Part shown: positions 51,699 through 64,000 of the stretch, one piece after another
Numbering within the stretch: the stretch's first letter is position 1
Layout of the letters: each line of letters opens with the position of its first letter
Virus record (IMG/VR): IMGVR_UViG_3300045988_138661
Origin: a virus
Reading direction: 5' to 3' (one strand)
Length of the DNA stretch: 64,000 nt
Made by a program: the position numbers and the translations under genes
The notes under the pieces: generated by a model
The model's database searches: none
What the model was told of the DNA's origin: nothing
What the model saw: the letters and a program-made list of their open reading frames with translations, nothing else

Positions 51699-52754
51699 TT
51701 AAGATTTTTTGGCCTTAGAATTTCGACAACTTTTACAAATACTATAAAAGCCATCTTTACTTGTTTTATTTTTACTAAAATATTTATTGTGAGCTAATTT
51801 TATTTTGCCACAACGACTACATTTTTTATATTTACCTTTTTCAACATTTAAATAATAATTATCTAAGTATTCATCTTCCGCAGTCGAAGCAATTAATTTT
51901 GGAATTTTATTACGCCATAAACTTGAAATATATTCAAGGCTGTGCTTAATACCAAATTCCATTTGTATTTTCTCTTGAATGTCAATATTTTGTAAACCAT
52001 CAATTTTATATTCAACGATTCTATCATAAAGAGGATAATTAGCTAAAGCTTTATCACAAAGTTTATCAAAATCCTCCATTAAATACCATAAATCTTTATC
52101 ATATTCGCCCCAACTATCTTGCTTTAATCGGGAATAATTACATAAAATCGCAGAACATATCTCAGGTCTTAATAAACTAATTCCATCAGGAATGGGAAAA
52201 CCATCATCATCAAAAATAAATGTTTCATCATCTAATGGAATATAAGACTTTGATCTGGTTAATTTTGTAGGCACTATTGGACGACGATAAGCATTTTTTA
52301 TAACATACTAATCTTTACGCATTTCAATAAGAGCCTTTTTAATAACAAAAGCATCTTTACCTTCTGTTACTTTTAATTTAGCCTCCCAAACATTAATGGC
52401 TTCTCTTAACTAATTTAAACTTGGTATCTCTTCTAAATCTTTTTTTGTAATTGTAATATGTGGTTGAAATATTGTATTTCTATTATCTGTAATTAAATTA
52501 TAAATTCCATCTTCGCCATTTTCGAGTTGGGAAACAAGACCTTCAAAAGAAGTCTCACGTTTATTAACTGTAGCCATACGATTATCAGTTAATAATTTTT
52601 TCTCCTTTTTTTCTTGTTTCTCCATACAAAGAACCAAATAGTCTGCTAAAATTTCTAAATACTTTTCAGGCGGATCTGGATTATCAGCCAAAATTTGTTC
52701 GACTAATTGATTTCTTTCTTCTGGAGTTTGTAAAGAATAATCAAGTTTTATCAT
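51699..52754 (-). CDS. Hypothetical protein, 351 aa, with a C-terminal zinc ribbon (CSRCGK...CKSCRNSK) and 2 TAG. First gene of the leftward arm.
   Basis: ORFs 52410..52754 and 51699..52274 share one frame; the gap was hand-checked. SD ggaggtaaaaaATG. TAA at 51701-51699. Confidence 0.45.
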
Positions 52755-53802: not shown

Positions 53803-53920
53803 ATCATGATTTGAAATTAAAAATTGATTTGTTGTTTTAACCGTATTCTGAAATTGAAAATTGATTTAGATAAATTTAAATTATTCTTCGTGATTTGAAA
53901 TTGAAAATTGATTTAGATTG
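53803..53920. repeat. Three direct repeats of about 25 bp (core GAAATTGAAAATTGATTT), spaced about 42 bp apart. Iteron-like.
   Basis: tgatttgaaattaaaaattgattt / ctgaaattgaaaattgatttagat / tgatttgaaattgaaaattgatttagat, inside a 570-bp non-coding stretch. Confidence 0.6.
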
Positions 53921-54092
53921 CGTTTTGACCACGCAAAAGGAAAAACACAAATAAAAAAAAATTTTTTCCCGAAATACACCCCCGCCCTATAAGGTTCTAA
54001 CTTGTTTATTCTCTGAGAGTATACCAGCCTTACTCTCGCTCTTTTGCGGAACGCAAGACCCCATCCCGCATAAATGCCCCGGTAAACGTTGC

Positions 54093-54135
54093 TCGGCTCG
54101 CTGGCGGTAGTGGCGAGCCGAGTTTTATAAAAATC
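54093..54135 (+). terminator. GC hairpin plus U-tract (ctcggctcgc tggcggtagtg gcgagccgag ttttat); copy E of the GC-hairpin module.
   Basis: 10-bp stem. Followed by TTGCACAAA..ATGCACAAA and a promoter. Confidence 0.5.
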
Positions 54136-54289
54136 AGCAGTTTGCACAAATTTCTCGCCGAAACTTCGTCATAATGCACAAACATCAAAATGCCCGAAAC
54201 TACGCCATCACATTTGGGTAAAATGACTATTGACAATCCAGTAGCCATGTGCTATACTTGTATCATCAAAAAGAAAGAGGTAAATCAAA

Positions 54290-54655
54290 ATGAAGAACAT
54301 TTCCAAAATCATCACCATGGCCATTGCTATCATTCTCTCCGTGTCTTTCTTTGGCCCGTTCCACGACCACACAACCGCGGAAGCCTGTGAGGAAGCGCCC
54401 CAGTCCTACGACCTCTCGGTCATTGAGAATTGGTGCGGTTCAGGCACGGAGCGCGGAAGTATCCGTTTCGTCGGCGCAGAGGTCTATGAGCGCGAGGGCG
54501 ATACACTGACGCTCATTGATGAGCAAGGCAATCTGTGGGACGTGGAAGCACTCAACATTGATGACAACGACTTCTTGCTCTTGTGGATTAACGACAATGA
54601 CACTGACACTGTGGAAGATGATACAATCATTAAGGTATGGAGAGAGGCTTACTAA
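54290..54655 (+). CDS. Secreted small protein, 121 aa, with a signal peptide (MKNISKIITMAIAIILSVSFFGP).
   Basis: ORF track. Promoter tattgacaatccagtagccatgtgctatact. RBS aagaaagaggtaaatcaaaATG. Confidence 0.6.
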   Translation: MKNISKIITMAIAIILSVSFFGPFHDHTTAEACEEAPQSYDLSVIENWCGSGTERGSIRFVGAEVYEREGDTLTLIDEQGNLWDVEALNIDDNDFLLLWINDNDTDTVEDDTIIKVWREAY

Positions 54656-54684
54656 GTCTCTCTCTTTCTTGCGGATCGGCGAAG

Positions 54685-54702
54685 ATTGTTAAAAAATTAA
54701 CA
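54685..54702. promoter_or_regulatory. Perfect palindrome TTGTTAAAAAATTAACAA (operator-like), about 25 nt upstream of a -35 hexamer. Also at 55109-55126, and a variant at 59041-59058.
   Basis: ggcgaagATTGTTAAAAAATTAACAAg and ggcgtagATTGTTAAAAAATTAACAAa are near-identical 27-mers. Confidence 0.5.
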
Positions 54703-54783
54703 AGCAAAGAAGAGTAAAAAACTCTTGACAAATGCGCAATGATGTGCTACAATGTAGATACAATAAGAAAGGGGAATACTCAG

Positions 54784-55074
54784 ATGACTAATAAGAATTT
54801 TTATAATGCTCTCAAAGCAGAAAAGGAACGGTTGATGAACGAAAGCAAGCAGGCATCCCGCGACTGCCAGATTAAGCATGGTGAGATGTCAAAGGCATGG
54901 AACATTGTCAATGCCCTTGAAAGCTTGGGTAAGTTTGGCACGCAGGAACTCAGCAACGCGTATGATAACTATGAGGAAGCCAGCTACGCAAGTATGTTAG
55001 CAGACAACCACTTCGATGACATTGATGAAGCCATTGATAAGATAAATGGATTGATGGGTCTTTACGAAGAATAA
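54784..55074 (+). CDS. Hypothetical protein, 96 aa.
   Basis: Promoter cttgacaaatgcgcaatgatgtgctacaat. RBS aaaggggaatactcagATG. Terminator agggagcagtaatgctccct. Confidence 0.6.
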   Translation: MTNKNFYNALKAEKERLMNESKQASRDCQIKHGEMSKAWNIVNALESLGKFGTQELSNAYDNYEEASYASMLADNHFDDIDEAIDKINGLMGLYEE

Positions 55075-55204
55075 GGGAGCAGTAATGCTCCCTTTCTAAC
55101 GGCGTAGATTGTTAAAAAATTAACAAAGATTTTTCTCAAAAAGGTCTTGACAAATCAGTTAGAATGTGGTATTCTATAATCACAAAGGGAAAGGGGAAAG
55201 AAAA

Positions 55205-55414
55205 ATGATTTATGGCATTGTTTATTATACTAAGGGCGGTCAGGGCTATCTCTTCCAGCAAGCGTTCGAAGAACAGCGCGCTATGGAGATTGCAGGTAAG
55301 ATGAACGACTTACTCGCGACAGGTGCTACGATGTATAATGATAAGTCCTATGGCAAGCTCGACTTGCGGAACGTTGAGTATTTCACAGTTGAACCCAGTA
55401 GCGAAATGTATTAA
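55205..55414 (+). CDS. Hypothetical protein, 69 aa.
   Basis: Promoter cttgacaaatcagttagaatgtggtattctataat. RBS aaaggggaaagaaaaATG. GC hairpin plus T-tract terminator follows. Confidence 0.55.
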   Translation: MIYGIVYYTKGGQGYLFQQAFEEQRAMEIAGKMNDLLATGATMYNDKSYGKLDLRNVEYFTVEPSSEMY

Positions 55415-55599
55415 GGGCGGGAGCGGGCTCCCCGCTCTTTCTCTTGCGCCGTGGGGCGCGTGTAGAGCGTCCCAGCCCGAACTTTATCACAGTAAAGCAT
55501 TAAAGCAAAATTTTTTCCATTTTTTGCCAAAAACCACTTGACATTCCTATCCCGAAATGCTATAATAGTATCATCAAAAGAAAGAAAGAGGTAAATCAA

Positions 55600-55722
55600 A
55601 TGTCTATTCACGATGGTCTTGTTCTTCTCGCTATCTATGTTGGTGTTATCGGCGCGGGCGCGCTCATCGAATACGTGGAGCACCGCGTAAAGAGAGCGGT
55701 TCATCGCAGAAAGAGAAGTTGA
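55600..55722 (+). CDS. Hydrophobic micro-protein, 40 aa (MSIHDGLVLLAIYVGVIGAGALIEYVEHRVKRAVHRRKRS): one TM helix plus a basic tail.
   Basis: Own promoter (cacttgacattcctatcccgaaatgctataat), RBS and terminator (agagaagtt gaaaa aacttctct ttttttt). Confidence 0.4.
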   Translation: MSIHDGLVLLAIYVGVIGAGALIEYVEHRVKRAVHRRKRS

Positions 55723-55776
55723 AAAACTTCTCTTTTTTTATAAAAAACACTTGACAAATCCAACAGCCGGTGCTAT

Positions 55777-55925
55777 ACTATAATTGTCAAGAGGGGAAGA
55801 GATAAGTTACTTCCCAAAGGGTGTGTGGCAAGTAGCCATTTCCTTTGATAAAACGCTTAGTTGGAGCGACCAGACAGGGCGCGCACTGTCCGCAAAAGTA
55901 GAGAATAAAAAAATTCCAACTTCTC
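55777..55925 (+). ncRNA. Candidate non-coding transcript from promoter 55751-55776; begins UGUCAAGAGG and contains hairpins.
   Basis: No credible ORF (track ORF 55784..56023 runs across the next promoter). Stem gggaag/cttccc and gacag-ggcgcgca-ctgtc. Confidence 0.3.
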
Positions 55926-56104
55926 AAAAAAACCTCTTGACAGACCCCTTAGAGTGTGATACAATAAGGATGTCAAGAGGCAGACAGGAGCGAACAACCT
56001 CTCCCCAATGCGTAGTTGGGTGAAGTAAAACAAAATCTCCCTACCGAACAAAAAAGTTCAAAAAACCTCTTGACAAACCCCTTAGAGTGTGATACAATAA
56101 GGGT
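55924..56104 (+). repeat. Tandem duplication of a 44-bp promoter unit (aaaaacctcttgacaNaccccttagagtgtgatacaataagg) at 55924-55967 and 56061-56104.
   Basis: Near-identical copies. The first is followed by AUGUCAAGAGG..., the second by the tRNA-like element. Confidence 0.6.
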
Positions 56105-56110
56105 ACAGAT

Positions 56111-56222
56111 GGCGGTGAGGTAGAACGGTTCTACTTCCACAAAGATGGCTGAGATACAAAAGTGTCGCTCACTTGGAAACGTTCGCTATTGGAAAATGTG
56201 GGTTCAACTCCCACCACCGCCT
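56111..56222 (+). tRNA. tRNA-like element of 113 nt: 7-bp acceptor stem (GGCGGTG/CACCGCC), D-arm (GTAG-AACGGTT-CTAC) and canonical T-arm (GTGGG-TTCAACT-CCCAC). Has an insertion of about 40 nt in the anticodon region, so either an atypical or intron-containing tRNA, or a tRNA-like RNA.
   Basis: Arms identified by hand. Possible anticodon stem 56136-56140 / 56189-56193 enclosing the insert. The promoter places the TSS about 5 nt upstream. Length is atypical and the anticodon is unresolved. Confidence 0.45.
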
Positions 56223-56302
56223 CAAAATTTTTTGAAAAAACACTTGACAAATCCAAAAGTAGATGTTATAATGTAGATACAATAAGAAAGGGGATAAAAA
56301 CC

Positions 56303-56566
56303 ATGACTACTTACAACATTCTCACTATTGGCCCTTCTCGTGAACCGAAGCTCGCGGGCAAGTTCAACGTTGCGGATACTGAAAACTTCCTTGACCGGTT
56401 AGAGGAAACGCTCTACATTCTCTTTGAATTAGAGCCGAAATCCCGCGAATGGAAACGCGAATTTCTCAAACATCTTTTTGCGGAATTCACTTATCACTTT
56501 TGCGAAGATTCCCGCGTTGAAAAGCAAGGCAACAATATTATCGTTTATGAAGAAAATGAGGGCTGA
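56303..56566 (+). CDS. Hypothetical protein, 87 aa (MTTYNILTIGPSREPK...).
   Basis: Promoter cacttgacaaatccaaaagtagatgttataat. RBS aaaggggataaaaaccATG. Terminator gggctgaaaaagccc plus T8. Confidence 0.6.
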   Translation: MTTYNILTIGPSREPKLAGKFNVADTENFLDRLEETLYILFELEPKSREWKREFLKHLFAEFTYHFCEDSRVEKQGNNIIVYEENEG

Positions 56567-56682
56567 AAAAGCCCTCATTTTTTTTCAAACTTTTTTCAAA
56601 AAACTATTGACATTTACTGCCCTAAGTGGTATTATAATATCAGAAAGGGAAAGGAAAATCCCGAACACCAGAAAGGTTAGCT

Positions 56683-56874
56683 ATGGATACTTTCGAAATG
56701 TATTACGAGAAATTCATGAAGATGCGCAAGGCTGACATTATTCGCGAGGGTCAGACTTGGGATATTTGGGCAAACTGCCAAAGCACTGCCGATAGCCTGA
56801 TGAAGTGGACAAAGCCCGTTCTTGCGAGAGTTCTTGCTGGACGCCTGGACCGTTTGGAAAAGCGGGGCTACTAA
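56683..56874 (+). CDS. Hypothetical protein, 63 aa.
   Basis: ORF track. Promoter ctattgacatttactgccctaagtggtattataat. Terminator agcggggctactaagccccgct. Confidence 0.55.
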   Translation: MDTFEMYYEKFMKMRKADIIREGQTWDIWANCQSTADSLMKWTKPVLARVLAGRLDRLEKRGY

Positions 56875-56959
56875 GCCCCGCTTCTTTCTTGAAAAAAGTT
56901 CTTGACAAATCTCGAATCTATGGTATAATAAGAGTATAAAAGGAAAGGGGATAAACAAA

Positions 56960-57199
56960 ATGACTTTGGACATGATTAAAAATGTAATTGGCACGGTAAA
57001 AGGCGCGCTGATGTTCTATGAGGGGAATGGCGTCGAAGTGATAAACGAAAACACTTGCGGTCGCTATCTCAAAGACCGCAAAGGTCGCATGACTTTGAAT
57101 GGTGATGTGTTAGACGCAAGCGAAGAGTGGGTGCTGGGATTGCCGGTCAGCGATTTGAAAGCCAGAGATAACGTTCTCATTATTTATGTTGATGGCTAA
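56960..57199 (+). CDS. Hypothetical protein, 79 aa.
   Basis: ORF track. Promoter cttgacaaatctcgaatctatggtataat. Terminator atctcccc aaaaa tggggagat plus T7. Confidence 0.55.
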   Translation: MTLDMIKNVIGTVKGALMFYEGNGVEVINENTCGRYLKDRKGRMTLNGDVLDASEEWVLGLPVSDLKARDNVLIIYVDG

Positions 57200-57253
57200 A
57201 ATTAAATTTTTTGAATTAAAAATCTCCCCAAAAATGGGGAGATTTTTTTGTAC

Positions 57254-57440
57254 ATTTTATCTATTGACAATCCCAAAACTTCATGGTATAATCGGCCGGC
57301 GCGCGAACGGACCTGGCGCGCCGAGTTTTTGTCAATAGGCGGGTTGCACAAATTTTTGGGGCAAATCTTTGTGCATAATGTCAATAGACAGAATCCCGAA
57401 TTGGTGCTATACTATAATCACAGTAAGGGAAGGAAAACCT
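57254..57440 (+). promoter_or_regulatory. GC-hairpin module copy A: promoter P1 (TTGACA 57254 / TATAAT 57277), GC hairpin 57283-57315 (cggccGGCGCGCgaacggacctgGCGCGCCgag) plus T5, TTGTCAAT, dyad TGCACAAA-N17-TTTGTGCA, then promoter P2 (TAGACA-N17-TATACT).
   Basis: Read directly from the sequence. Comparable modules at 60790-60960 (B), 62828-63010 (C), 59041-59250 (D) and 54093-54280 (E). Confidence 0.5.
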
Positions 57441-57464
57441 ACCAAACCGGAAAGGGATAACAAC

Positions 57465-57773
57465 ATGATTAACATTCGTTCTATTCTCAAACTCGCTGAA
57501 AATGACGGTCTGACCCTCAAACATGGCAAGAAGGTCAATTACAAGTCCGGCTGGCAGGTCGCCACTAATGGCGTTGAATGTAAGACCGCCCGCGAAGCCA
57601 TTAACGCGGTCAAGGAATATGGCGGCAACTGCGGCGTGTGGTTTGCGAACGGCATTTATTATGTTGACAAGTCCAAGAGGGTGCAGACCAAGAAGCAGGC
57701 GCTTGAAATCGGCAAGGCGTGCAACCAAATCAGTGTATATGGCTGGGCGCGCGGCAATCTGGCTTACTGCTAA
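57465..57773 (+). CDS. Hypothetical protein, 102 aa.
   Basis: RBS ggaaagggataacaacATG. ORF track frame. Confidence 0.6.
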   Translation: MINIRSILKLAENDGLTLKHGKKVNYKSGWQVATNGVECKTAREAINAVKEYGGNCGVWFANGIYYVDKSKRVQTKKQALEIGKACNQISVYGWARGNLAYC

Positions 57774-57851
57774 AAAATTAAATAGAGGGCTTGACAAAAC
57801 AAGCCCTCTATGCTATAATAAAGGCACAATAAAGGAAAGGGAGAAAACAAC

Positions 57852-58121
57852 ATGGAAATTAAATATGCTCACGAAATGGCGGCTATCGCTAAGGACATCC
57901 GCACCGCCAAGCGCGCCAAAGATACTGCTACGGCCCGCGCCTATCTTGAAGAAAACCTGATGAAAGATATTGAAGACCACGCGGAAAAAGGCGAGAATTA
58001 TCTGTCTCGCTGTCTCGTTGCCATTGAAGATGAAGCCGTGAAAGAAGCCTTAAAAAATCTTTTGCGGAATTATGGCTATACAACTTCTTATTCAAACGGC
58101 GTTCTCACCGTAAGGTGGTAA
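57852..58121 (+). CDS. Hypothetical protein, 89 aa.
   Basis: ORF track. Promoter with the -35 hexamer inside the palindrome agagggcttgacaaaacaagccctct. Terminator agagggaaaatttttccctct plus T. Confidence 0.6.
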   Translation: MEIKYAHEMAAIAKDIRTAKRAKDTATARAYLEENLMKDIEDHAEKGENYLSRCLVAIEDEAVKEALKNLLRNYGYTTSYSNGVLTVRW

Positions 58122-58225
58122 GGTAAAAGAGGGAAAATTTTTCCCTCTTTTTCTAAAAAACTTCTTGACAAATCCAAAAGCAGATGTTATAATAAAAGCA
58201 CAATAAAGGAAAGGGGAATAAATTA

Positions 58226-58297
58226 ATGGAATGTCCTTATTGCGATGGAAAGTGCGGAACACATGCTCAATGCGTTAAATGCGGAAAAGGGAAATAA
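58226..58297 (+). CDS. Candidate 23-aa Cys-rich micro-protein (MECPYCDGKCGTHAQCVKCGKGK), a zinc-ribbon-like peptide.
   Basis: Strong RBS aaaggaaaggggaataaattaATG. Four CxxC-type Cys pairs. Confidence 0.3.
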   Translation: MECPYCDGKCGTHAQCVKCGKGK

Positions 58298-58299
58298 AA

Positions 58300-58656
58300 A
58301 TGGGAACGGAATTCTTAATTATTGGCGGAATTTTTAGCGCAGTCCTTGCGCTGTTTGTCTGCCTTGTCTGTTGGTGCCGCATGGAAAAGTCTCACCCAAT
58401 AGTCAGATTGTTAGTTGGTATCCTTATTTCGTGCGCCATCGGTTATGGCATGACGGGCGCGTTAGTCGCAGAACATAATGCCGATAGAAAAGCATGGAAC
58501 AACGGCTATTGCTCCATTTGCGGAAATGAAATGGAATTTGTAAATGCTTCTCATGGTCGGCATGGAACAGTTTATTACTATTGGTATTGCGATGAGTGCG
58601 GTCATACGTTAGAGTTAACTTCTAACTTTGCAAAGGGGGAAACAGATAATGAATGA
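58300..58656 (+). CDS. Membrane protein with two TM helices plus a C-terminal zinc ribbon (CSICG...CDECG), 118 aa.
   Basis: RBS ggaaaagggaaataaaaATG. ORF track frame. Confidence 0.55.
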   Translation: MGTEFLIIGGIFSAVLALFVCLVCWCRMEKSHPIVRLLVGILISCAIGYGMTGALVAEHNADRKAWNNGYCSICGNEMEFVNASHGRHGTVYYYWYCDECGHTLELTSNFAKGETDNE

Positions 58657-58855
58657 AAAAACTATCCCACAGGCTTTGAGAGAACAGGCAGACGCCATTG
58701 AAAAGTTAGCTCAAAGAATTGCGAAAGAAAGCAAGGAATTTCCAGACGAGGAAGACCGCAGAGACGGCGGAGAACTTGCGGACGCTTTATTTGCGATTCA
58801 ATCAAAGCTCCGCTATGAGTACTCTTGGATTGCGGAAACCATGTGGGACGTGTAA
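58649..58855 (+). CDS. Hypothetical acidic protein, 68 aa.
   Basis: RBS caaagggggaaacagataATG, overlapping the previous stop. Terminator tcaggcgagat ttaat tatctcgcctga plus T. Confidence 0.5.
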   Translation: MNEKTIPQALREQADAIEKLAQRIAKESKEFPDEEDRRDGGELADALFAIQSKLRYEYSWIAETMWDV

Positions 58856-58934
58856 TTTTCAGGCGAGATTTAATTATCTCGCCTGAAAATTTTTTTCAAA
58901 AAACTATTGACAAACTCACCCCGTTGTGGTATTA

Positions 58935-59036
58935 TAATCATGTCAAGAGGAAGTGGTAAGCCTCTTGAAGTAGTGAACAAATTTCTCATACTATGGTTTG
59001 CGCGGTAGCCGATAATTACCGCGCCCTTTCTATTTC
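58935..59036 (+). ncRNA. Candidate small RNA or leaderless micro-ORF transcript. Starts AUGUCAAGAGG, has a 5-prime hairpin caagagg/cctcttg and a terminator gcgcggta-gccgataat-taccgcgc plus T-run.
   Basis: Promoter ctattgacaaactcaccccgttgtggtattataat immediately upstream. A possible 22-aa leaderless ORF (MSRGSGKPLEVVNKFLILWFAR) ends at TAG. Confidence 0.3.
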
Positions 59037-59258
59037 ATTTTTGTTAAAATTTTAACAATGATTGTTCGGCCGGGCGCGCACGGACCACGCGCCCGGAATT
59101 TCAATTATATCACAGGGCCAGCAATTTGTCAAGCAAAAAGTCGCGAAAATTTGCATAAATTATTTTTCCCAATTTTGTGCGATCCGTCAATAGACAAATC
59201 TCTAAGAGTGTGTTATATTATAATTGTTCCAAGGGAACAGAAAGATGAGGTAAATAAA

Positions 59259-59465
59259 ATGACTAACTACAACATTCACTCTTTTATCAAGACCCAGCTT
59301 CTCCATGCCGAGCAGATGCCCAGCGATGCCGAACTTTTCAAGCATAACGCCTATGGCGCAGTCTCGTGGGAGTTATATCGCACGAATGACCATGCCCTTG
59401 AAGAACAGTGGGCAAATGTATATGCTCCCAAGTTCGACGCCATCATCAGAAATTATCATTTCTGA
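59259..59465 (+). CDS. Hypothetical protein, 68 aa (MTNYNIHSFIK...).
   Basis: RBS gatgaggtaaataaaATG. Promoter tagacaaatctctaagagtgtgttatatt. Confidence 0.55.
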   Translation: MTNYNIHSFIKTQLLHAEQMPSDAELFKHNAYGAVSWELYRTNDHALEEQWANVYAPKFDAIIRNYHF

Positions 59466-59534
59466 TAAAAAGGGCTTGACAAAAGCCCTTTCGCATGATA
59501 TAATACATATACAATCAAGAAAGAGGTAAAACAA

Positions 59535-59873
59535 ATGCTTATCAAAATGTCAAAACACGCCACGCAAGACCGCATTGACCGCCTGCTCTTCATCTACGAT
59601 AATGTAGGAATCGGCGAACCGTATATCGACAGTGTTGAGGACGATGTTCTCTACACTATCACTACAACAGGTATTCTTCTTGTTCGTAGTGCTAAGGACG
59701 GAACACTCATTACAGCCTATATCGCGGATATTGATAAAATCACCGCAATATGGAGAAATAAGCACGGCGAGCGCCCTATGCCTGATAACCTTTACAAGCG
59801 GGTTCTCGCAAACGCGTTCTTTGATAGAATGTGGAATAAGCAAGAAAAGGAGAAAAAGAAAAATGTTCGGTAA
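59535..59873 (+). CDS. Hypothetical protein, 112 aa.
   Basis: ORF track. Promoter with the -35 hexamer inside aaagggcttgacaaaagcccttt. Confidence 0.6.
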   Translation: MLIKMSKHATQDRIDRLLFIYDNVGIGEPYIDSVEDDVLYTITTTGILLVRSAKDGTLITAYIADIDKITAIWRNKHGERPMPDNLYKRVLANAFFDRMWNKQEKEKKKNVR

Positions 59874-60216
59874 GAAAAAGAAGCCTTTCAATCCATATGA
59901 AAAACGCGCGGACGATGCGCTTTATGAAGTATGGGAAACGCGCGACCGCCTTTATGAAAAGACAAGGCAAGTCATTACGCGCGTAGGGGTGATTAACCTT
60001 TACCCCAATGGCGCTGACCGCGAGAAAGCCGTCTCTGACGCCGAAGAAGCGAAGCACGCTTTGCTTGTAGCTATTGGAGCATACGACACCGCGCGCATGG
60101 AATACAATGATTATGTTGAAAAAAACGCGGAAAAGTTTGACAACCATAAAGAAAAATGGACTACCACGAGCCATGAAATTATCGAATGGGCTTACAAATA
60201 CTATTATAAAGGGTGA
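59863..60216 (+). CDS. Hypothetical protein, 117 aa.
   Basis: RBS aaaaggagaaaaagaaaaATG, overlapping the upstream gene end. Confidence 0.55.
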   Translation: MFGKKKKPFNPYEKRADDALYEVWETRDRLYEKTRQVITRVGVINLYPNGADREKAVSDAEEAKHALLVAIGAYDTARMEYNDYVEKNAEKFDNHKEKWTTTSHEIIEWAYKYYYKG

Positions 60217-60221
60217 ATAAA

Positions 60222-60455
60222 ATGAAGATTACTATTAAGAATAATAAACTCGCCCCCTTTGGAGAAATTGCCAAGGGCGTAGTTTTCAAAGACCCGACCG
60301 CCGAAGATTATTACATCAAAATCGCCGCAGAGGTCGATGAAAATACCGGTGATGATGAATGGAATTGTCTCCATTTGGACAATTACGCTCTCGACTGTTT
60401 CGGCCTAAAAGATATGGTTCTCCCCATCTACGATGCGGAACTGATTATTCCCTGA
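60222..60455 (+). CDS. Hypothetical protein, 77 aa.
   Basis: RBS aaagggtgaataaaATG. Hairpin ggcggttgt-accccaaaaa-acaaccgcc follows. Confidence 0.55.
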   Translation: MKITIKNNKLAPFGEIAKGVVFKDPTAEDYYIKIAAEVDENTGDDEWNCLHLDNYALDCFGLKDMVLPIYDAELIIP

Positions 60456-60568
60456 TAAAACCGGACTTTGTCCGCGTTTCTCTCCCCCTTTCCTATGGCT
60501 TTGGCGGTTGTACCCCAAAAAACAACCGCCACCCTTTCCAAAAAATAAATTGAATGGAGATAAAAAAG

Positions 60569-60745
60569 ATGAAGAATGAGAAACTTAGTGAGGTTGTTAA
60601 AACTGTGTGCTTGATGGCACGATACGGCATTCAGAAGGGATATCCCTCGGGCGGGACAGAAGCAAATGACATGATTGAACGTGTCGCGCTTCTTGAAAAC
60701 AAGCTCGTTCCCATTCTCGTCGACCTTGAAGCCGTAGAAAACTAA
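60569..60745 (+). CDS. Hypothetical protein, 58 aa.
   Basis: RBS aatggagataaaaaagATG. Terminator aatcacccaa tttgggtgatt plus T8. Confidence 0.5.
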   Translation: MKNEKLSEVVKTVCLMARYGIQKGYPSGGTEANDMIERVALLENKLVPILVDLEAVEN

Positions 60746-60967
60746 ATGAAAAATCACCCAATTTGGGTGATTTTTTTTGTTTACTTTCACTATTGACAAA
60801 GTTCCTTGAATGTGATAAAATCGTCGGCGCGCGGACGATTGTGGCGCGCCGAGTTTTTTGTCAAGAGGTAAGTTCAACAAATTTTCGCACGAATTTTTGT
60901 GTAAAATGCCAATAGACAAAAATCCTATAATGTGGTAAGATGTATACAACAAATAGAGGGGGCTAAA

Positions 60968-61315
60968 ATGATGGTTGCATGGTATTGGTTAATTCTCGCG
61001 TTTTGCGTGGGTATTGCGTTCGCTACAATCACTGATGAGTGGTATGATTGGGAAAACACTTTAACTGACATTCTTGCATGGATTGCTCTGATTATCGGCT
61101 TCGTTCCTTTGACTTTCTATTGCATATTTCTCAAACTGACGGTTTTCCACCCCACTACGCGAGAGAAGTTTGAGGAAGTCAAAAAGGTTAGCGAAGAAAC
61201 TTGTAAAATCTATCGAGTATGCGGAAACGTGTATTTCTGGATTGACCTTAAAGCAACAAAAATCTATAACAAGGTATTCTTTATTCGAGTAAAGGAAACT
61301 GAAAACAATGGGTGA
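60968..61315 (+). CDS. Small membrane protein, 115 aa.
   Basis: RBS aaatagagggggctaaaATG. Preceded by GC-hairpin module copy B. Confidence 0.55.
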   Translation: MMVAWYWLILAFCVGIAFATITDEWYDWENTLTDILAWIALIIGFVPLTFYCIFLKLTVFHPTTREKFEEVKKVSEETCKIYRVCGNVYFWIDLKATKIYNKVFFIRVKETENNG

Positions 61316-61466
61316 AAGAGTTAATGTTTTATGTTTAATTGAGTGGTTGCGCGCTTGGACGGAAACCTTTAATGACTGCGCTTGTTGTCCTTTGTCCAAC
61401 GAGTGCGACCGCCGGAGCATCAGTTATGAATGTGCTGATGACCTATTAGAAAAATTAAAGGAGTAA
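61308..61466 (+). CDS. Cys-rich 52-aa protein (…FNDCACCPLSNECDRRSISYECADD…).
   Basis: ATG overlaps the upstream stop. RBS-like ggaaactgaaaacaATG. Confidence 0.4.
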   Translation: MGERVNVLCLIEWLRAWTETFNDCACCPLSNECDRRSISYECADDLLEKLKE

Positions 61467-61539
61467 ATTAAAAACTCTCTATTGACATTTTTGTTATAAT
61501 ATGATATTATTATAATAGAAAAAGGAAAGGGTGATAATA

Positions 61540-62013
61540 ATGAATACAATTCTTCTGTTCGCGCTTTGCACGGCGGTGAATGTTATTCTGTCAACTATCA
61601 AAAGCATTTTGACTGTTAAGGGCGGAAAACTTAGCGCGTCTTTCATCAACGCTCTCACTTATGGTTTTTATTCCTATGTGATTGTGCTGACTTCTGCGGA
61701 CGGTATGCCTATTTGGTTAAAAATGGCTATTACTGCCATTTGTAATTTCGTAGGCGTTTACCTTGTCAAGTGGATTGAAGAAAAAGCGCGTAAAGATAAA
61801 TTATGGAAAGTCGAGCTTACCGTACCGACAAGATACACTAATACCATTGACTTTGACTTACATGATGTTCCACATTCTTACATTGAATTGAGCGATAAAC
61901 ATACGCTTTTCAATTTTTACTGCGCGACCCAAAAGGAAAGCGCAAAAGTCAAGGCTATCGCTAATCAGTATGAAGCAAAATATTTTGTTGCGGAAAGCAA
62001 AAATCTTGAATAA
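61540..62013 (+). CDS. Membrane protein, 157 aa (N-terminal 3-4 TM helices plus a soluble C-terminal domain).
   Basis: Promoter ctctattgacatttttgttataat. RBS aaaaggaaagggtgataataATG. Confidence 0.6.
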   Translation: MNTILLFALCTAVNVILSTIKSILTVKGGKLSASFINALTYGFYSYVIVLTSADGMPIWLKMAITAICNFVGVYLVKWIEEKARKDKLWKVELTVPTRYTNTIDFDLHDVPHSYIELSDKHTLFNFYCATQKESAKVKAIANQYEAKYFVAESKNLE

Positions 62014-62077
62014 AGGGCTTGACAAAAGCCTTTTATTCTGCTATACTTAACGTATCAAGTGAAAGGGGAAAATTAAA

Positions 62078-62530
62078 ATGAAAGCTACTGGTATCGTTCG
62101 CAGAATTGATGACCTTGGACGTGTGGTCATTCCGAAAGAGATTCGCCGGACTTTGAAGATCCGCGAGGGCGACCCGCTTGAAATCTTCCTTGGAGAGGAC
62201 AACTGCGTTTGCTTCAAGAGGTATTCAGTGCTTGGTTCGTTGACCGAAGAGGCTCTGCGAACCGCTATTACAATGGCGTCAAATTCCGGTCTACGCCCTA
62301 TCGCAATTTATGATACTACTGTAAAACTGCGGGGCATGGAAAACTTTTCGGCCTATGTCCCGACCCAGTGGGAATTTGAAAGAAAGCCATTTGTTTTCAA
62401 TAATACCTATGGCGTTTATCCGGTTTGCGCGGACGGCGACCTTGTGGGTTATGCGGTTTGCGACCAGCAAGACATGGGGTGTGAAATGGACATGATTGTT
62501 CGCTACCTCAGCATTGTGTCTGAACGTTAA
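62078..62530 (+). CDS. AbrB/SpoVT-family transcriptional regulator, 150 aa (N-terminal swapped-hairpin domain MKATGIVRRIDDLGRVVIPKEIRRTLKIREGDPLEIF).
   Basis: The N-terminus matches the hallmark AbrB/Abh/SpoVT N-domain almost residue for residue. Own promoter and RBS. Confidence 0.75.
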   Translation: MKATGIVRRIDDLGRVVIPKEIRRTLKIREGDPLEIFLGEDNCVCFKRYSVLGSLTEEALRTAITMASNSGLRPIAIYDTTVKLRGMENFSAYVPTQWEFERKPFVFNNTYGVYPVCADGDLVGYAVCDQQDMGCEMDMIVRYLSIVSER

Positions 62531-62606
62531 AAAAATAGCACAAGGGGCTTGACAAAACAAGTCCCTTGTGCTATAATAAAACCATCAAAGGAAAGGGGCA
62601 AATAAA

Positions 62607-62783
62607 ATGGAAATTGAAAAGAAATTCCAGGTTGATTATAGCGGTAAAAATCCTTGGGACCAGTATTACGACAATCGGGTTAATTTTGATTCCGAAGAAA
62701 AAGCCGATGCTTTTATCCAAAAGTTGATGGAAGATGAAAATATCTATCAAATTTTCAAAACCATTACTGCCAGATACAGATAA
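62607..62783 (+). CDS. Hypothetical protein, 58 aa.
   Basis: RBS aaggaaaggggcaaataaaATG. Terminator ggtgaaaattcacc plus T7. Confidence 0.5.
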   Translation: MEIEKKFQVDYSGKNPWDQYYDNRVNFDSEEKADAFIQKLMEDENIYQIFKTITARYR

Positions 62784-63021
62784 AATTTGAGGTGAAAATT
62801 CACCTCATTTTTTTGGTTATTTTGCCTATTGACAAAAATCCAATAGTGTGATAAAATGGCCGGCCGTTTACGTATGCCACGGCCGGAACTTCAATTATAC
62901 CAGAAGCCAGCAAATTTGTCAATCGGCAAAATGCACAAAAATCTAATTAGTTTTTTTCCCAAAATGTGCTTGACAAAATCCAGCAGATGCGCTATAATGT
63001 ATTTAGAAAGAGGTGAAAAAC

Positions 63022-63180
63022 ATGGATAATTTCAAGAAAGCCACTGTAAAAGATTATACTGCTTGGGATTTGAATTGTAGAAACATTTGCCCTCACGATA
63101 AATCTTCTAATAAACTGGAAAAGCGTATCAAGCGCAAGGCTCGCAGAAGTCTTAAACAAAATTTGAAAAAAAAGTATTGA
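63022..63180 (+). CDS. Small basic protein, 52 aa.
   Basis: RBS agaaagaggtgaaaaacATG. The stop lies inside the -35 hexamer of the next promoter. Confidence 0.45.
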   Translation: MDNFKKATVKDYTAWDLNCRNICPHDKSSNKLEKRIKRKARRSLKQNLKKKY

Positions 63181-63237
63181 CAAAATACAGCAAATGCGCT
63201 ATAATGTAAGTACAGTAAAGGAAAGGGGTAAACACCA

Positions 63238-63738
63238 ATGAAAATCACTTACATCAAGTCTCACGTTGTGACCACTCGACGCTCTATCAACTTTGACATG
63301 GACGGCACTATCGCTGACCTCTACGGCGTCAAGGATTGGCTCGCGCTTCTCCGTTCGGAAAATCCCACACCCTATCGGACTGCCGCTCCTATGTGCGATA
63401 TGGCTGAATTGAATGAGGTTTGCGAACTTCTCCGCGCCGAGGGTTGGGAAATCAACATCATCACTTGGCTTTCCAAAGATTCGAGCGAGGAATACAAAAA
63501 CCTCGTGCGTAAAGCAAAGCGTGCGTGGCTTGAAGAACAGGGCTTCCACTATGACCACTTCCACGGCGTCCAGTATGGCGCGACCAAAGCCGACAGCGTG
63601 CGCGACCGCTATGACGTGTCCATCTTGGTTGACGATAATGAAAAGGTTCGGAATGGTTGGCACTTGGGCGCTACCATTGACCCGACCGCAGTAAACATTA
63701 TCGAAAAACTTTCGGAACTTTTGGAGAAAAGGGCTTGA
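63238..63738 (+). CDS. HAD-superfamily 5-prime(3-prime)-deoxyribonucleotidase-like protein (NT5C-type; FDMDGTIAD motif I), 166 aa.
   Basis: DxDGT motif near the N-terminus and a size typical of the NT5C family. Promoter attgacaaaatacagcaaatgcgctataat. Confidence 0.55.
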   Translation: MKITYIKSHVVTTRRSINFDMDGTIADLYGVKDWLALLRSENPTPYRTAAPMCDMAELNEVCELLRAEGWEINIITWLSKDSSEEYKNLVRKAKRAWLEEQGFHYDHFHGVQYGATKADSVRDRYDVSILVDDNEKVRNGWHLGATIDPTAVNIIEKLSELLEKRA

Positions 63739-63792
63739 CAAAGCCCTACTCCAATGGTATAATAAATACATCAAATGAAAGGGGAAAATAAA

Positions 63793-64000
63793 ATGTTTGT
63801 TCTTTTAATTCTGCTGTCTCTCACAATTTCGTTCCTGCTTATCTCTGGTTTAGTTTGGCTTCTCTGTTGGCTTCTCCCTGCCATTGGTATCACCGCAATC
63901 GGCACTTTCACCATCGTGTTCTCGTGGAAGCTGGCACTCGCAATTTGGATTATTCTCCTGCTTCTGAGCACTATCTTCCCGAGCGGTAGTAATAGGGGGT
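63793..64000 (+). CDS. Partial membrane protein (multi-TM; MFVLLILLSLTISFLLISGLVWLL...), running off the window.
   Basis: RBS aaaggggaaaataaaATG. Promoter with the -35 hexamer inside the agggcttgacaaagccct palindrome. Confidence 0.5.
   Translation, partial: MFVLLILLSLTISFLLISGLVWLLCWLLPAIGITAIGTFTIVFSWKLALAIWIILLLLSTIFPSGSNRG

Follow-up and report, generated by a model that had tools for sequence, protein, structure and literature searches.

The closest described counterparts of the element discussed here are the PeSLs (promoter-early stem-loops) of T4-type phages, cassettes that mark boundaries in the early regions (PMC2839356, PMC4122927). The element itself is an intergenic module of a GC-rich hairpin and up to three promoters, and it recurs five times (copies A to E) in the DNA of a virus, IMG/VR record IMGVR_UViG_3300045988_138661; the whole stretch of 64,000 nucleotides that was analysed is called the window, and all five copies lie in a block of small early genes at its right-hand end. 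Like PeSLs, the modules are repeated intergenic cassettes of about 100 bp in a plastic early region; they combine a strong sigma-70-type promoter with a terminating GC stem-loop, have small genes without known function on either side, and may likewise be linked to the shuffling of genes among relatives. A PeSL, however, has one promoter, which serves the next gene, and its stem-loop overlaps the -35 and -10 boxes or sits between them; the modules have their hairpin at the start site, up to two inward promoters that serve no gene, a third promoter for the gene, an upstream promoter box, a loop of conserved sequence, and a host of Gram-positive type. The PeSL layout is rather that of the window's ordinary gene junctions (57782-57811, 62540-62565): at these two sites and at 59470-59490, 62013-62033 and 63727-63747, the next promoter has its -35 box inside a terminator stem-loop (GGGC-TTGACA-AAAGCCC).

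A second likeness is to the par locus of pAD1 and other type I toxin-antitoxin loci of the Fst type in Firmicutes, with their convergent promoters, shared bidirectional terminator, RNA of about 40 nt and complementary loops (PMC7472228). Unlike these loci, the modules have neither a toxin reading frame nor room for one (about 37 bp) and no DRa/DRb repeats, and many copies have one promoter or none; the Rfam family fstAT matches below threshold (23.6 bits against a cut-off of 72 bits) and elsewhere, at 53900-53994. Close opposed promoters, short non-coding RNAs and interference are also known from pR/pL of coliphage 186, Pant/Psar of P22, the countertranscripts of pT181 and pIP501, and RnaG/icsA, but in these switches the promoters serve genes or the antisense RNA covers a defined target; in the modules only the hairpin overlaps, the flanking genes differ, and each genome has five to seven such arrangements. 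Engineered composites of a terminator and an antisense promoter act through promoter competition and RNA polymerase collision, with a bidirectional terminator confining the antisense arm (PMC4731013). Those composites are synthetic, work in E. coli, and hold nothing that matches the rightward promoter ahead of our hairpins, their conserved loop, or the upstream box. In PR'-tR' of lambda (6S RNA) with Q, in nut/boxB, and in put of HK022, a constitutive promoter is closely followed by a hairpin or terminator and gives a short transcript. There, one site per operon leads into long operons and is paired with a dedicated antiterminator, whereas here the downstream gene has its own promoter, the hairpin is approached by promoters from both sides or from none, and Pfam recognised no antiterminator (N-, Q- or other) or RNA-binding protein among 20 early proteins.

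We found no described system that matches the arrangement of the modules, with starts inside or at the foot of a bidirectional terminator and consensus promoters that serve no gene. The cassette is real, conserved, polar and undescribed, and consists of known parts in an unusual arrangement. We tentatively favour the reading that it is a polar intergenic cassette marking transcription-unit boundaries in the early block of uncultured, TAG-recoded Firmicutes-type gut phages.

A covarying hairpin of one polarity

An unbiased scan of the 64 kb for perfect stems of at least 7 bp with at least 6 GC pairs found 13 hairpins. Five of them are A to E, with stems of 8-10 bp made up entirely or almost entirely of GC pairs and loops of 9-11 nt; among the 13, a consensus promoter abuts only A to D. 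A covariance model built from 82 non-identical copies, with module E outside the training set, gives exactly five significant matches in the window (D 45, A 39.5, B 37.6, C 32.4 and E 27 bits), each of them on the plus strand within the early block, which confirms the number and places of the copies in the original prediction; the reverse strand scores at most 11.7 bits, and positions 1-54 kb give no match. A generic terminator scan with a loop limit of 8 had overlooked these hairpins, the 9-11 nt loops being atypical.

The original prediction had proposed alignment and a covariation check, and these bring out paired substitutions. Across the 82 unique sequences, C-G and G-C exchange frequently at three stem positions (46:31, 45:32 and 49:26) and C-G and U-A at a fourth (66:10), and the covariation score is 0.454 against 0.14 in shuffled alignments and at most 0.117 in slid registers. 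The percentage of paired positions is circular, since the copies were picked by their perfect stems, while the paired changes are not. Even orthologous sites carry different stems: the site before gene 57466 has CGGCGCGC/GCGCGCCG in the window and CCGGCCG/CGGCCGG in loci L015 and L016 of relatives. The loop is conserved as well, with a core (A)CG (C in 43 and G in 41 of 44 unique 11-nt loops; cACGGnCCw in 9-nt loops), of which the loop motif first noted, GGAC(C/G), is one variant only. The modules are thus a homologous, structured and selected family. The asymmetry of wobble pairs gives no strand of function, T.G and G.T together amounting to 22 against 28 for C.A and A.C.

Relatives were anchored on a sigma-factor-like protein encoded beside the early block (51699-52754, minus strand), which has 481 relatives in the viral collection; 80 loci, with 72-99% protein identity and a total of 1.44 Mb, were examined. 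The covariance model finds 163 further copies in them, all on one strand relative to the sigma-like gene and all inside the early block. The five copies of the window and the 163 of the family, with one polarity, covarying stems and fixed promoter spacing, support a boundary cassette.

A separate class of promoters around the hairpin

Up to three promoters accompany each hairpin: P1, rightward and directly upstream; P-, leftward and facing P1 from the other side; and P2, rightward and ahead of the next gene. From their sequence they are predicted to be of the sigma-70/sigma-A class (TTGACA, 17 nt, (TGn)TATAAT). P1 in A, B and C and P- in C and D match the consensus at 11-12 of 12 positions, and the five P2 at 9-12; in the 80 loci the -35, TG and -10 elements are retained while the spacers drift, a mark of selection. 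The promoters directly upstream of A, B and C and the second promoter before each gene had already been seen in the original prediction, and both stand. Eight promoters of the early block carry a box TTTG(T/G)NNN (similar to TTTGTGCA) exactly 17 nt upstream of the -35 box, namely A-P1, A-P2, B-P1, B-P2, C-P1, C-P-, D-P2 and E-P2. These eight all belong to modules, and the ordinary gene promoters in the window's early block lack the box; P1, P- and P2 therefore form a separate promoter class marked by it. The parts of the five modules are as follows, predicted terminators of the upstream genes being called Term0.

A, 57220-57250, both strands: Term0-A, predicted, with A-run, stem and T-run (57223-57240 on the plus strand, 57242-57225 on the minus strand)
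A, 57247-57292, plus strand: P1 of the box class, with box TTTGTACA at 57247-57254, -35 TTGACA at 57264-57269 and TGg TATAAT at 57287-57292
A, 57297-57323, plus strand: GC hairpin, 8-bp stem as given above and 11-nt loop gaACGgacctg
A, 57324-57330, plus strand: AG and a TTTTT tract, which with the hairpin would form an intrinsic-terminator-like end of the P1 RNA
A, 57329-57352, minus strand: truncated leftward promoter, with -35 TTGACA at 57335-57330 and box TTTGTGCA at 57352-57345, spacer and -10 deleted
A, 57368-57413, plus strand: P2, with box TTTGTGCA at 57368-57375, weak -35 TAGACA at 57385-57390 and TGc TATACT at 57408-57413; gene start 57466
B, 60748-60776, both strands: Term0-B, predicted
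B, 60776-60821, plus strand: P1, with box TTTGTTTA at 60776-60783, -35 at 60793-60798 and TGa TAAAAT at 60816-60821
B, 60824-60852, plus strand: GC hairpin, 9-bp stem TCGGCGCGC/GCGCGCCGA, loop ggACGattgtg
B, 60853-60859, plus strand: G and a TTTTTT tract
B, 60858-60881, minus strand: truncated leftward promoter, with -35 TTGACA at 60864-60859 and a degenerate box at 60881-60874
B, 60896-60941, plus strand: P2, with box TTTGTGTA at 60896-60903, -35 TAGACA at 60913-60918 and TGg TAAGAT at 60936-60941; gene start 60968
C, 62788-62814, both strands: Term0-C, predicted
C, 62812-62857, plus strand: P1, with box TTTGGTTA at 62812-62819, -35 at 62829-62834 and TGa TAAAAT at 62852-62857
C, 62860-62886, plus strand: GC hairpin between face-to-face promoters, stem CCGGCCGT/ACGGCCGG, loop ttACGtatgcc
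C, 62894-62939, minus strand: P- with 12 of 12 consensus matches, -35 TTGACA at 62922-62917, TGg TATAAT at 62899-62894 and box TTTGTGCA at 62939-62932; its -10 box ends 7 nt from the stem
C, 62970-62998, plus strand: P2, with TTGACA at 62970-62975 and TATAAT at 62993-62998; gene start 63022
D, 59041-59069, plus strand: decayed P1 (TTGTTA, no -10), intact at the orthologous site in loci L030 and L016
D, 59070-59096, plus strand: GC hairpin, 9-bp stem CCGGGCGCG/CGCGCCCGG, 9-nt loop cACGGaCCa
D, 59104-59132, minus strand: P- with 12 of 12 consensus matches, -35 at 59132-59127 and TGa TATAAT at 59109-59104
D, 59174-59219, plus strand: P2, with box TTTGTGCG at 59174-59181, -35 TAGACA at 59191-59196 and TGt TATATT at 59214-59219; gene start 59259
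E, 54092-54126, plus strand: GC-rich hairpin followed by TTTT, 10-bp stem CTCGGCTCGC/GCGAGCCGAG, loop tggCGgtagtg (z = -4.9)
E, 54143-54182, plus strand: two direct copies of TGCACAAA (54143, 54175), read as remnants of upstream boxes
E, 54213-54258, plus strand: P2, with box TTTGGGTA at 54213-54220, -35 TTGACA at 54230-54235 and TGc TATACT at 54253-54258; gene start 54290

The upstream terminator, predicted on both strands, had escaped the original prediction as a part of the module; Term0-A is homologous to the terminators upstream of B and C (family D15). A free-standing motif TTGTCAA(t/g)(a/c)GG had been described in all five copies. It occurs in A to D, with D reading TTGTCAAGCAA instead of ending in GG, and is absent from E; it is no independent motif but the -35 box of a leftward promoter, which C and D have in full and A and B in shortened form. 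Leftward transcription is therefore to be expected on this reading of the motif, and the earlier argument that convergent transcription could be dismissed was wrong, C and D carrying minus-strand promoters that match the consensus in full. The dyad or direct repeat reported next to the motif likewise holds in part: the exact TGCACAAA/TTTGTGCA pair is found only in A, E has two direct copies and C one, and those of B and D are degenerate. Since the box occurs 17 nt upstream of the -35 of module promoters, the TGCACAAA dyad is explained as the boxes of P- and P2 standing back to back.

Aligned with C and D, A and B show a gap of about 23 nt that corresponds to the lost spacer and -10 box of P-, and have a T-tract after the hairpin instead; both keep the -35 box of P- and the sequence upstream of it, and intact versions are found in relatives. 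P1 of A is kept in relatives while its spacer drifts, and the hairpin of E has no abutting promoter on either side. Either promoter can thus decay (P1 in D, P- in A and B) with the hairpin retained throughout. Among 100 unique copies, 27 have P1 only, 17 P- only, 19 both promoters face to face, and 37 neither; these last keep perfect stems. Convergent promoters sharing a bidirectional terminator-like hairpin are hence a feature of module C and of 19 unique copies in relatives, with about 37 bp and no reading frame between the -10 boxes of P1 and P-.

The association of hairpin and promoter was examined in a way independent of how the hairpins were found. Among all unique consensus promoters of the family, those with a GC hairpin beginning at most 10 nt from the -10 box make up 4% of the 546 ordinary rightward promoters, against 54% of 61 rightward and 83% of 23 leftward box-class promoters. 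The spacing is tight, the stem beginning 2-4 nt past the -10 box of P1 and 7-8 nt past that of P-. If transcription starts, as is usual, some 7 nt past the -10 box, the 5' end of the P1 RNA would lie a few bases into the 5' arm of the stem and that of the P- RNA at its foot. The predicted 5' ends are about 57298-57299 (A), 60826-60827 (B) and 62862-62863 (C) for P1 and about 62887-62889 (C) and 59097-59099 (D) for P-; P2 would start about 7 nt past 57413, 60941, 62998, 59219 and 54258, and 3' ends are predicted near 57330 (A), 60859 (B) and, on the minus strand, 62850 (C). The -10 box of P1 is unusual, too: TAAAAT is found in 25 of 56 hairpin-abutting P1 (45%), in 6 of 551 other rightward promoters (1%), and in none of 42 hairpin-abutting leftward promoters. 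Its complement reads AUUUUA on the other strand, 2-4 nt beyond the stem.

RNA anti-CRISPRs, which are solitary repeat units, provide a precedent for a promoter-driven single hairpin in a phage genome. That the modules are such repeat mimics, or else plain intrinsic terminators that happen to lie near promoters, we regard as very improbable. Module E and many copies of relatives do look like plain terminators; the promoter association and fixed spacing just described, the conserved loop and the fixed polarity all speak against it. A repeat mimic could not tolerate the differing stems, and the search of CRISPR repeats that the original prediction had suggested found no matching array in 185,579 species genomes. 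With the commonest hairpin as query there were 40 single matches in these genomes, 9 on phage-like contigs with the same cassette and 31 in genomes with a GC content of at least 0.64, so that a CRISPR-repeat mimic and a host REP-like repeat were both rejected. Nor does any known class fit, as the original prediction had held: Rfam at gathering and at E-value thresholds has no family that covers the modules, the overlaps being sub-threshold and terminator-like.

A possible sixth copy at about 55440-55540 was not counted, as the covariance model gives no detection there. In this candidate degenerate module (55415-55600), the stem GGGGCGC/GCGTCCC is imperfect and includes a G.T pair, and the leftward promoter is decayed. 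The gene behind it (55600-55722) encodes a peptide of 40 residues with a hydrophobic stretch and a basic tail, a shape like that of type I toxins or holin-like peptides.

Predicted transcripts and the proposed marking of unit boundaries

The U-tracts reported after A, B and E are present, the stem being followed by 0-2 nt and T4-T6, while C and D have only AAyTTCA. In the family, 81% of copies with P1 only have four or more T in a row past the hairpin, against 16% of those with both promoters, and 22 of the 27 copies with P1 only have at least 4 U within 9 nt of the stem. On the minus strand, a U-rich tail is found in 10 of 19 copies with both promoters against 0 of 17 with P- only; these 17 have no U-tract past the hairpin, and a terminator-like signal follows within 100 nt in 3 of them. 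P1 would therefore be stopped in almost all copies, either at a U-tract or by a promoter that points at it head-on and starts about 23 bp away. The hairpin looks like a bidirectional terminator between two promoters, in which each -10 region would be the tail for the other's RNA. From this geometry, P1 in A and B is predicted to yield RNAs of about 33-35 nt, which bears out, at the level of promoter, hairpin and U-tract, the hairpin-only transcripts foreseen for these two copies; P- would yield RNAs of about 40-115 nt where P1 is present. In copies with P- only, such as D, the product would be a hairpin-capped antisense RNA of undefined length, and in D it would traverse the non-coding unit at 58940-59030.

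In a boundary cassette, the hairpin would act as an intrinsic terminator for rightward RNA and, where P1 is present, would terminate leftward RNA as well, with an AUUUUA tail from the complement of TAAAAT. The inward promoters, starting inside the stem or at its foot, would give only short hairpin-capped RNAs; where they stand face to face, their close start sites would make them mutually exclusive and would also exclude a passing polymerase. No rightward transcription would then cross the cassette, expression of the next gene would be reset at P2, and P2 could be controlled separately through its box. Perfect stems kept without any promoter argue for a promoter-independent role of the hairpin, for which termination of rightward read-through is the natural candidate, while the maintenance of P1 and P- as consensus promoters with exact spacing argues that their firing or their product matters. 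It is the combination of promoterless hairpins, rightward block, maintained P1 and P-, and a P2 of their own class that makes us favour the boundary reading. It has precedents in the engineered terminator/antisense-promoter composites, which work in this manner (PMC4731013), and in the PeSL boundaries of T4-type phages (PMC2839356).

Several points weigh against this reading. Loops of 9-11 nt with an (A)CG core are unusual for an intrinsic terminator and not needed by it, and so long a conserved loop suggests some partner. In 24 of the 37 promoterless unique copies, there is only a weak T-tract such as AATTT, so that the strength of the barrier would vary. Mini-units of P1 and a U-tract, found in several lineages, are superfluous for a pure boundary and point to a function of the short RNA or of firing. 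The leftward RNA of copies with P- only is not confined, and these copies would in addition produce RNA antisense to the upstream unit. A candidate for the box-binding protein, the AbrB/SpoVT-type protein encoded at 62078-62530 and the sole DNA-binding protein recognised in the block, is a guess, and every start site, RNA end and terminator activity is a prediction.

Some of these points would be explained if P1, P- or both were genes for short, abundant 5'-triphosphate GC-hairpin RNAs of about 33-45 nt acting in trans, for instance by sequestering, as sponge or decoy, a host protein of RNA binding, RNA decay or defence or else a phage protein that recognises the (A)CG loop. The abundant small hairpin RNA or protein-binding RNA of the original prediction thus stays a live rival, which we consider possible though somewhat doubtful. 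Consensus promoters kept directly on the hairpin with tight spacing, the proper U-tract that ends most units with P1 only, a loop core beyond what a terminator needs, and several copies per genome all fit such RNAs. They would not explain why 37% of the unique copies keep the hairpin without an abutting promoter; moreover, either strand may be transcribed, giving different loops, with no bias of G.U over A.C, and since the stems differ within a genome a partner would have to read the loop alone. The early block has no recognisable RNA-binding protein either. A related view, that the promoters are dead ends yielding nothing but a hairpin mini-RNA of about 33-45 nt from either strand, plentiful early in infection, or that the cassettes are capture-and-release sites that hand polymerase to a weak P2, we hold to be doubtful; in both cases selection would act on the firing of promoters without a gene.

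The unconfined leftward RNAs raise the question of a cis-acting switch, in which P- would provide a hairpin-capped and thereby stable antisense RNA against the 3' end of the upstream unit (in D, against the entire non-coding unit at 58940-59030) or the first 23 nt or so of the P1 RNA; competition between the opposed P1 and P- would then time the early genes. Copies with P- only, the commonest form in divergent lineages and in contigs binned into metagenome-assembled genomes (MAGs), would suit it, their leftward RNA being unterminated at the hairpin (0 of 17). The distance of 7-8 nt from the -10 box of P- to the stem puts the full hairpin at the 5' end of the RNA, and in Bacillus subtilis a 5'-end hairpin protects RNA from 5' exonuclease. 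The convergent promoters sharing a terminator in par of pAD1 (PMC7472228) and the face-to-face promoters with an antisense RNA at icsA/RnaG are precedents. Such a switch is unlikely all the same, as A, B and E have no functional P-, the upstream genes vary by copy and by phage without a common target, and the overlap with the P1 RNA holds no ribosome-binding site or obvious regulatory target.

A regulated attenuator or antitermination switch had been the first suggestion for the modules. Spelled out, the hairpin RNA, made right behind P1, would load or modify RNA polymerase (processive antitermination, nut/put/Q-like), or the hairpin would be a terminator overridden later by some phage factor, P1 in this way adding to expression of the downstream genes. 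The order promoter, hairpin, terminator in A and B is indeed that of lambda PR'-tR' and of the nut/put layout; the many downstream terminators could be targets, and the loop core could be a protein-binding site. This is no longer favoured and appears improbable to us. In every copy the downstream gene has its own P2; in 37 of the 100 unique copies the hairpin stands without a promoter, and promoters on its other side serve it equally; where the U-tract is missing, a head-on consensus promoter opposes P1. No antiterminator-like protein is apparent in the early block, and no conserved boxA-like element lies by the hairpin. The block of P1 in nearly every copy was also the ground for rejecting a 5' stabiliser of the downstream mRNA, and a relic of a deleted gene between P1 and terminator was rejected because the junction of 2-4 nt is identical in paralogous and in divergent copies.

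Distribution in relatives and the surrounding early block

In divergent copies, the cassette has a consensus order. It begins with the upstream terminator and an optional P1, TTTGTGCAttttgccTATTGACAA-N17-TA(T/A)AAT; after 2-4 nt follows a GC stem of 7-10 bp with the loop cACGGnCCw or nnACGnnYGnn, then P- read backwards (aATTTcc-ATTATA-ccac...gcaa-TTTGTCAAtaggcaa-TTTGCACAAA), and finally P2 (tTCCCGAAA-TTTGTGCA-atttgac-(T/A)TGACAA). With the string GGCGCGCCGAGTTTTT, modules A and B are recovered in some dozen viral contigs of 97-222 kb. A loose pattern, TTGTCAA-N40-65-CAATAGACA, gave matches in viral contigs that are nearly all due to chance, with four real extra copies among them. Nine further copies lie on short contigs binned with genomes of Clostridia, Acutalibacteraceae, Lachnospiraceae and Eubacteriales, and this Clostridia-type binning fits the Firmicutes-type promoters and ribosome-binding sites. 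Megablast and blastn searches of 50,697 phage records found no module-bearing relative, only the AbrB-like gene being matched. With the covariance model, neither the complete phAss-1 genome nor the 37 kb that surround the sigma-like gene in Enterococcus phage EF1 contains the cassette (at most 15.4 bits), the sigma-like protein of EF1 being 41% identical to that of the window; the cassette is therefore specific to this uncultured clade. The paper on phAss-1 has no mention of promoters, hairpins or terminators, and we found no experimental literature applicable to the cassette. A single junction of the same type in EF1, a cultured distant relative (L326, MF001358.1; at about 27925 of the reverse-complemented locus), reads TTGACA-17-TAAAAT, 2 nt, and a GC hairpin (6-bp stem, 4-nt loop), which may be due to chance or remotely related to the cassette.

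The early blocks are strongly mosaic even where the sigma-like proteins are 98-99% identical, and one module can precede different genes in different phages. In loci L218 and L038, the terminator of gene 58649 is joined directly to module B with 1.9 kb deleted; other rearrangement breakpoints lie at ordinary promoter cassettes and not at modules. Copies follow each other at a median of 1979 nt (interquartile range 1768-2214, 79 intervals), or about one per four to five small genes, as at 54107, 57310, 59083, 60838 and 62873 in the window and in the related loci L016, L026 and L037, a regularity that is no independent statistic since many loci are close relatives. These observations, together with the 27-nt inverted repeat formed around the hairpin by the P1 and P- arms in C (85% complementary) and the precedent of PeSLs, could also suit an element acting as DNA, be it a recombination hot spot, a mobile (PeSL- or MITE-like) cassette, a cruciform or a protein-binding site. 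Such an element seems to us as improbable as antitermination. Stems that covary and differ within a genome argue against a sequence-specific DNA-binding protein; target-site duplications and clean empty sites were not seen, no systematic search having been made; the breakpoints at ordinary cassettes mean that shuffling is not specific to modules; and recombination does not explain the spacing from -10 box to stem or the bias towards TAAAAT.

The cassettes lie in a phage with two distinct halves. In the late region, TAG is read as a sense codon, which lengthens the longest frame of 1-54 kb from 555 to 2760 codons; this reassignment is confined to positions 1-53700, and the early block at 54000-64000 uses the standard code. 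The late genes are on the minus strand with a GC content of about 0.28-0.33, the early ones on the plus strand with 0.40-0.44, so that near 54 kb gene strand, genetic code and composition switch together. For the large terminase, identity is about 47% to those of Enterococcus phages EF1 and VRE9_4 and Geobacillus phage E3, and 60% to that of a human-faecal contig. The sigma-like protein (phrog_5767, E = 9e-55) has a C-terminal zinc-ribbon-like tail, and an in-frame TAG interrupts its gene. Nearly each of the approximately 25 small early genes has its own consensus TTGACA-17-TGnTATAAT promoter, a strong ribosome-binding site and a terminator, and the block resembles the host-takeover early regions of large Gram-positive phages. 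Among the 20 early proteins, only the AbrB/SpoVT-type domain protein scores above the curated cut-off of Pfam.

Three promoter-driven units without a reading frame, all starting with GTCAAGAGG, lie at 55785-55905, 55970-56060 and 58940-59030 on the plus strand. None has an Rfam match; the last has a good fold (z = -2.7) and its own terminator, and in relatives P2 of some modules drives units that begin likewise, GTCA(A/G)GAGG. A tRNA-like gene at 56111-56222 (plus strand), with its own consensus promoter, is the only feature of the window above the Rfam gathering threshold (37 bits against the tRNA cut-off of 29). It has good acceptor, D and T arms and about 50 nt in place of the 9-nt anticodon-loop region, is not called by ARAGORN, and could be an intron-bearing or unusual suppressor tRNA. 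Directly upstream of module E, the AT-rich gap at the late/early boundary holds three direct repeats of about 25 nt, GATTTGAAATT(A/G)AAAATTGATTT, at 53808-53920.

In these phages the late genes require suppression of TAG, and the cassette is confined to the early block with its standard code; one of its -10 boxes appears to double as U-tract for the opposite strand. If the short RNAs are functional, they would be a new class of phage small RNA; if the barrier is true, it would be a compact natural insulator that could be reused in Gram-positive synthetic biology; either way, start sites and RNA ends are precisely predicted. From its conservation, polarity and location, the cassette is likely to be part of the organisation or timing of early transcription in these abundant uncultured gut phages.

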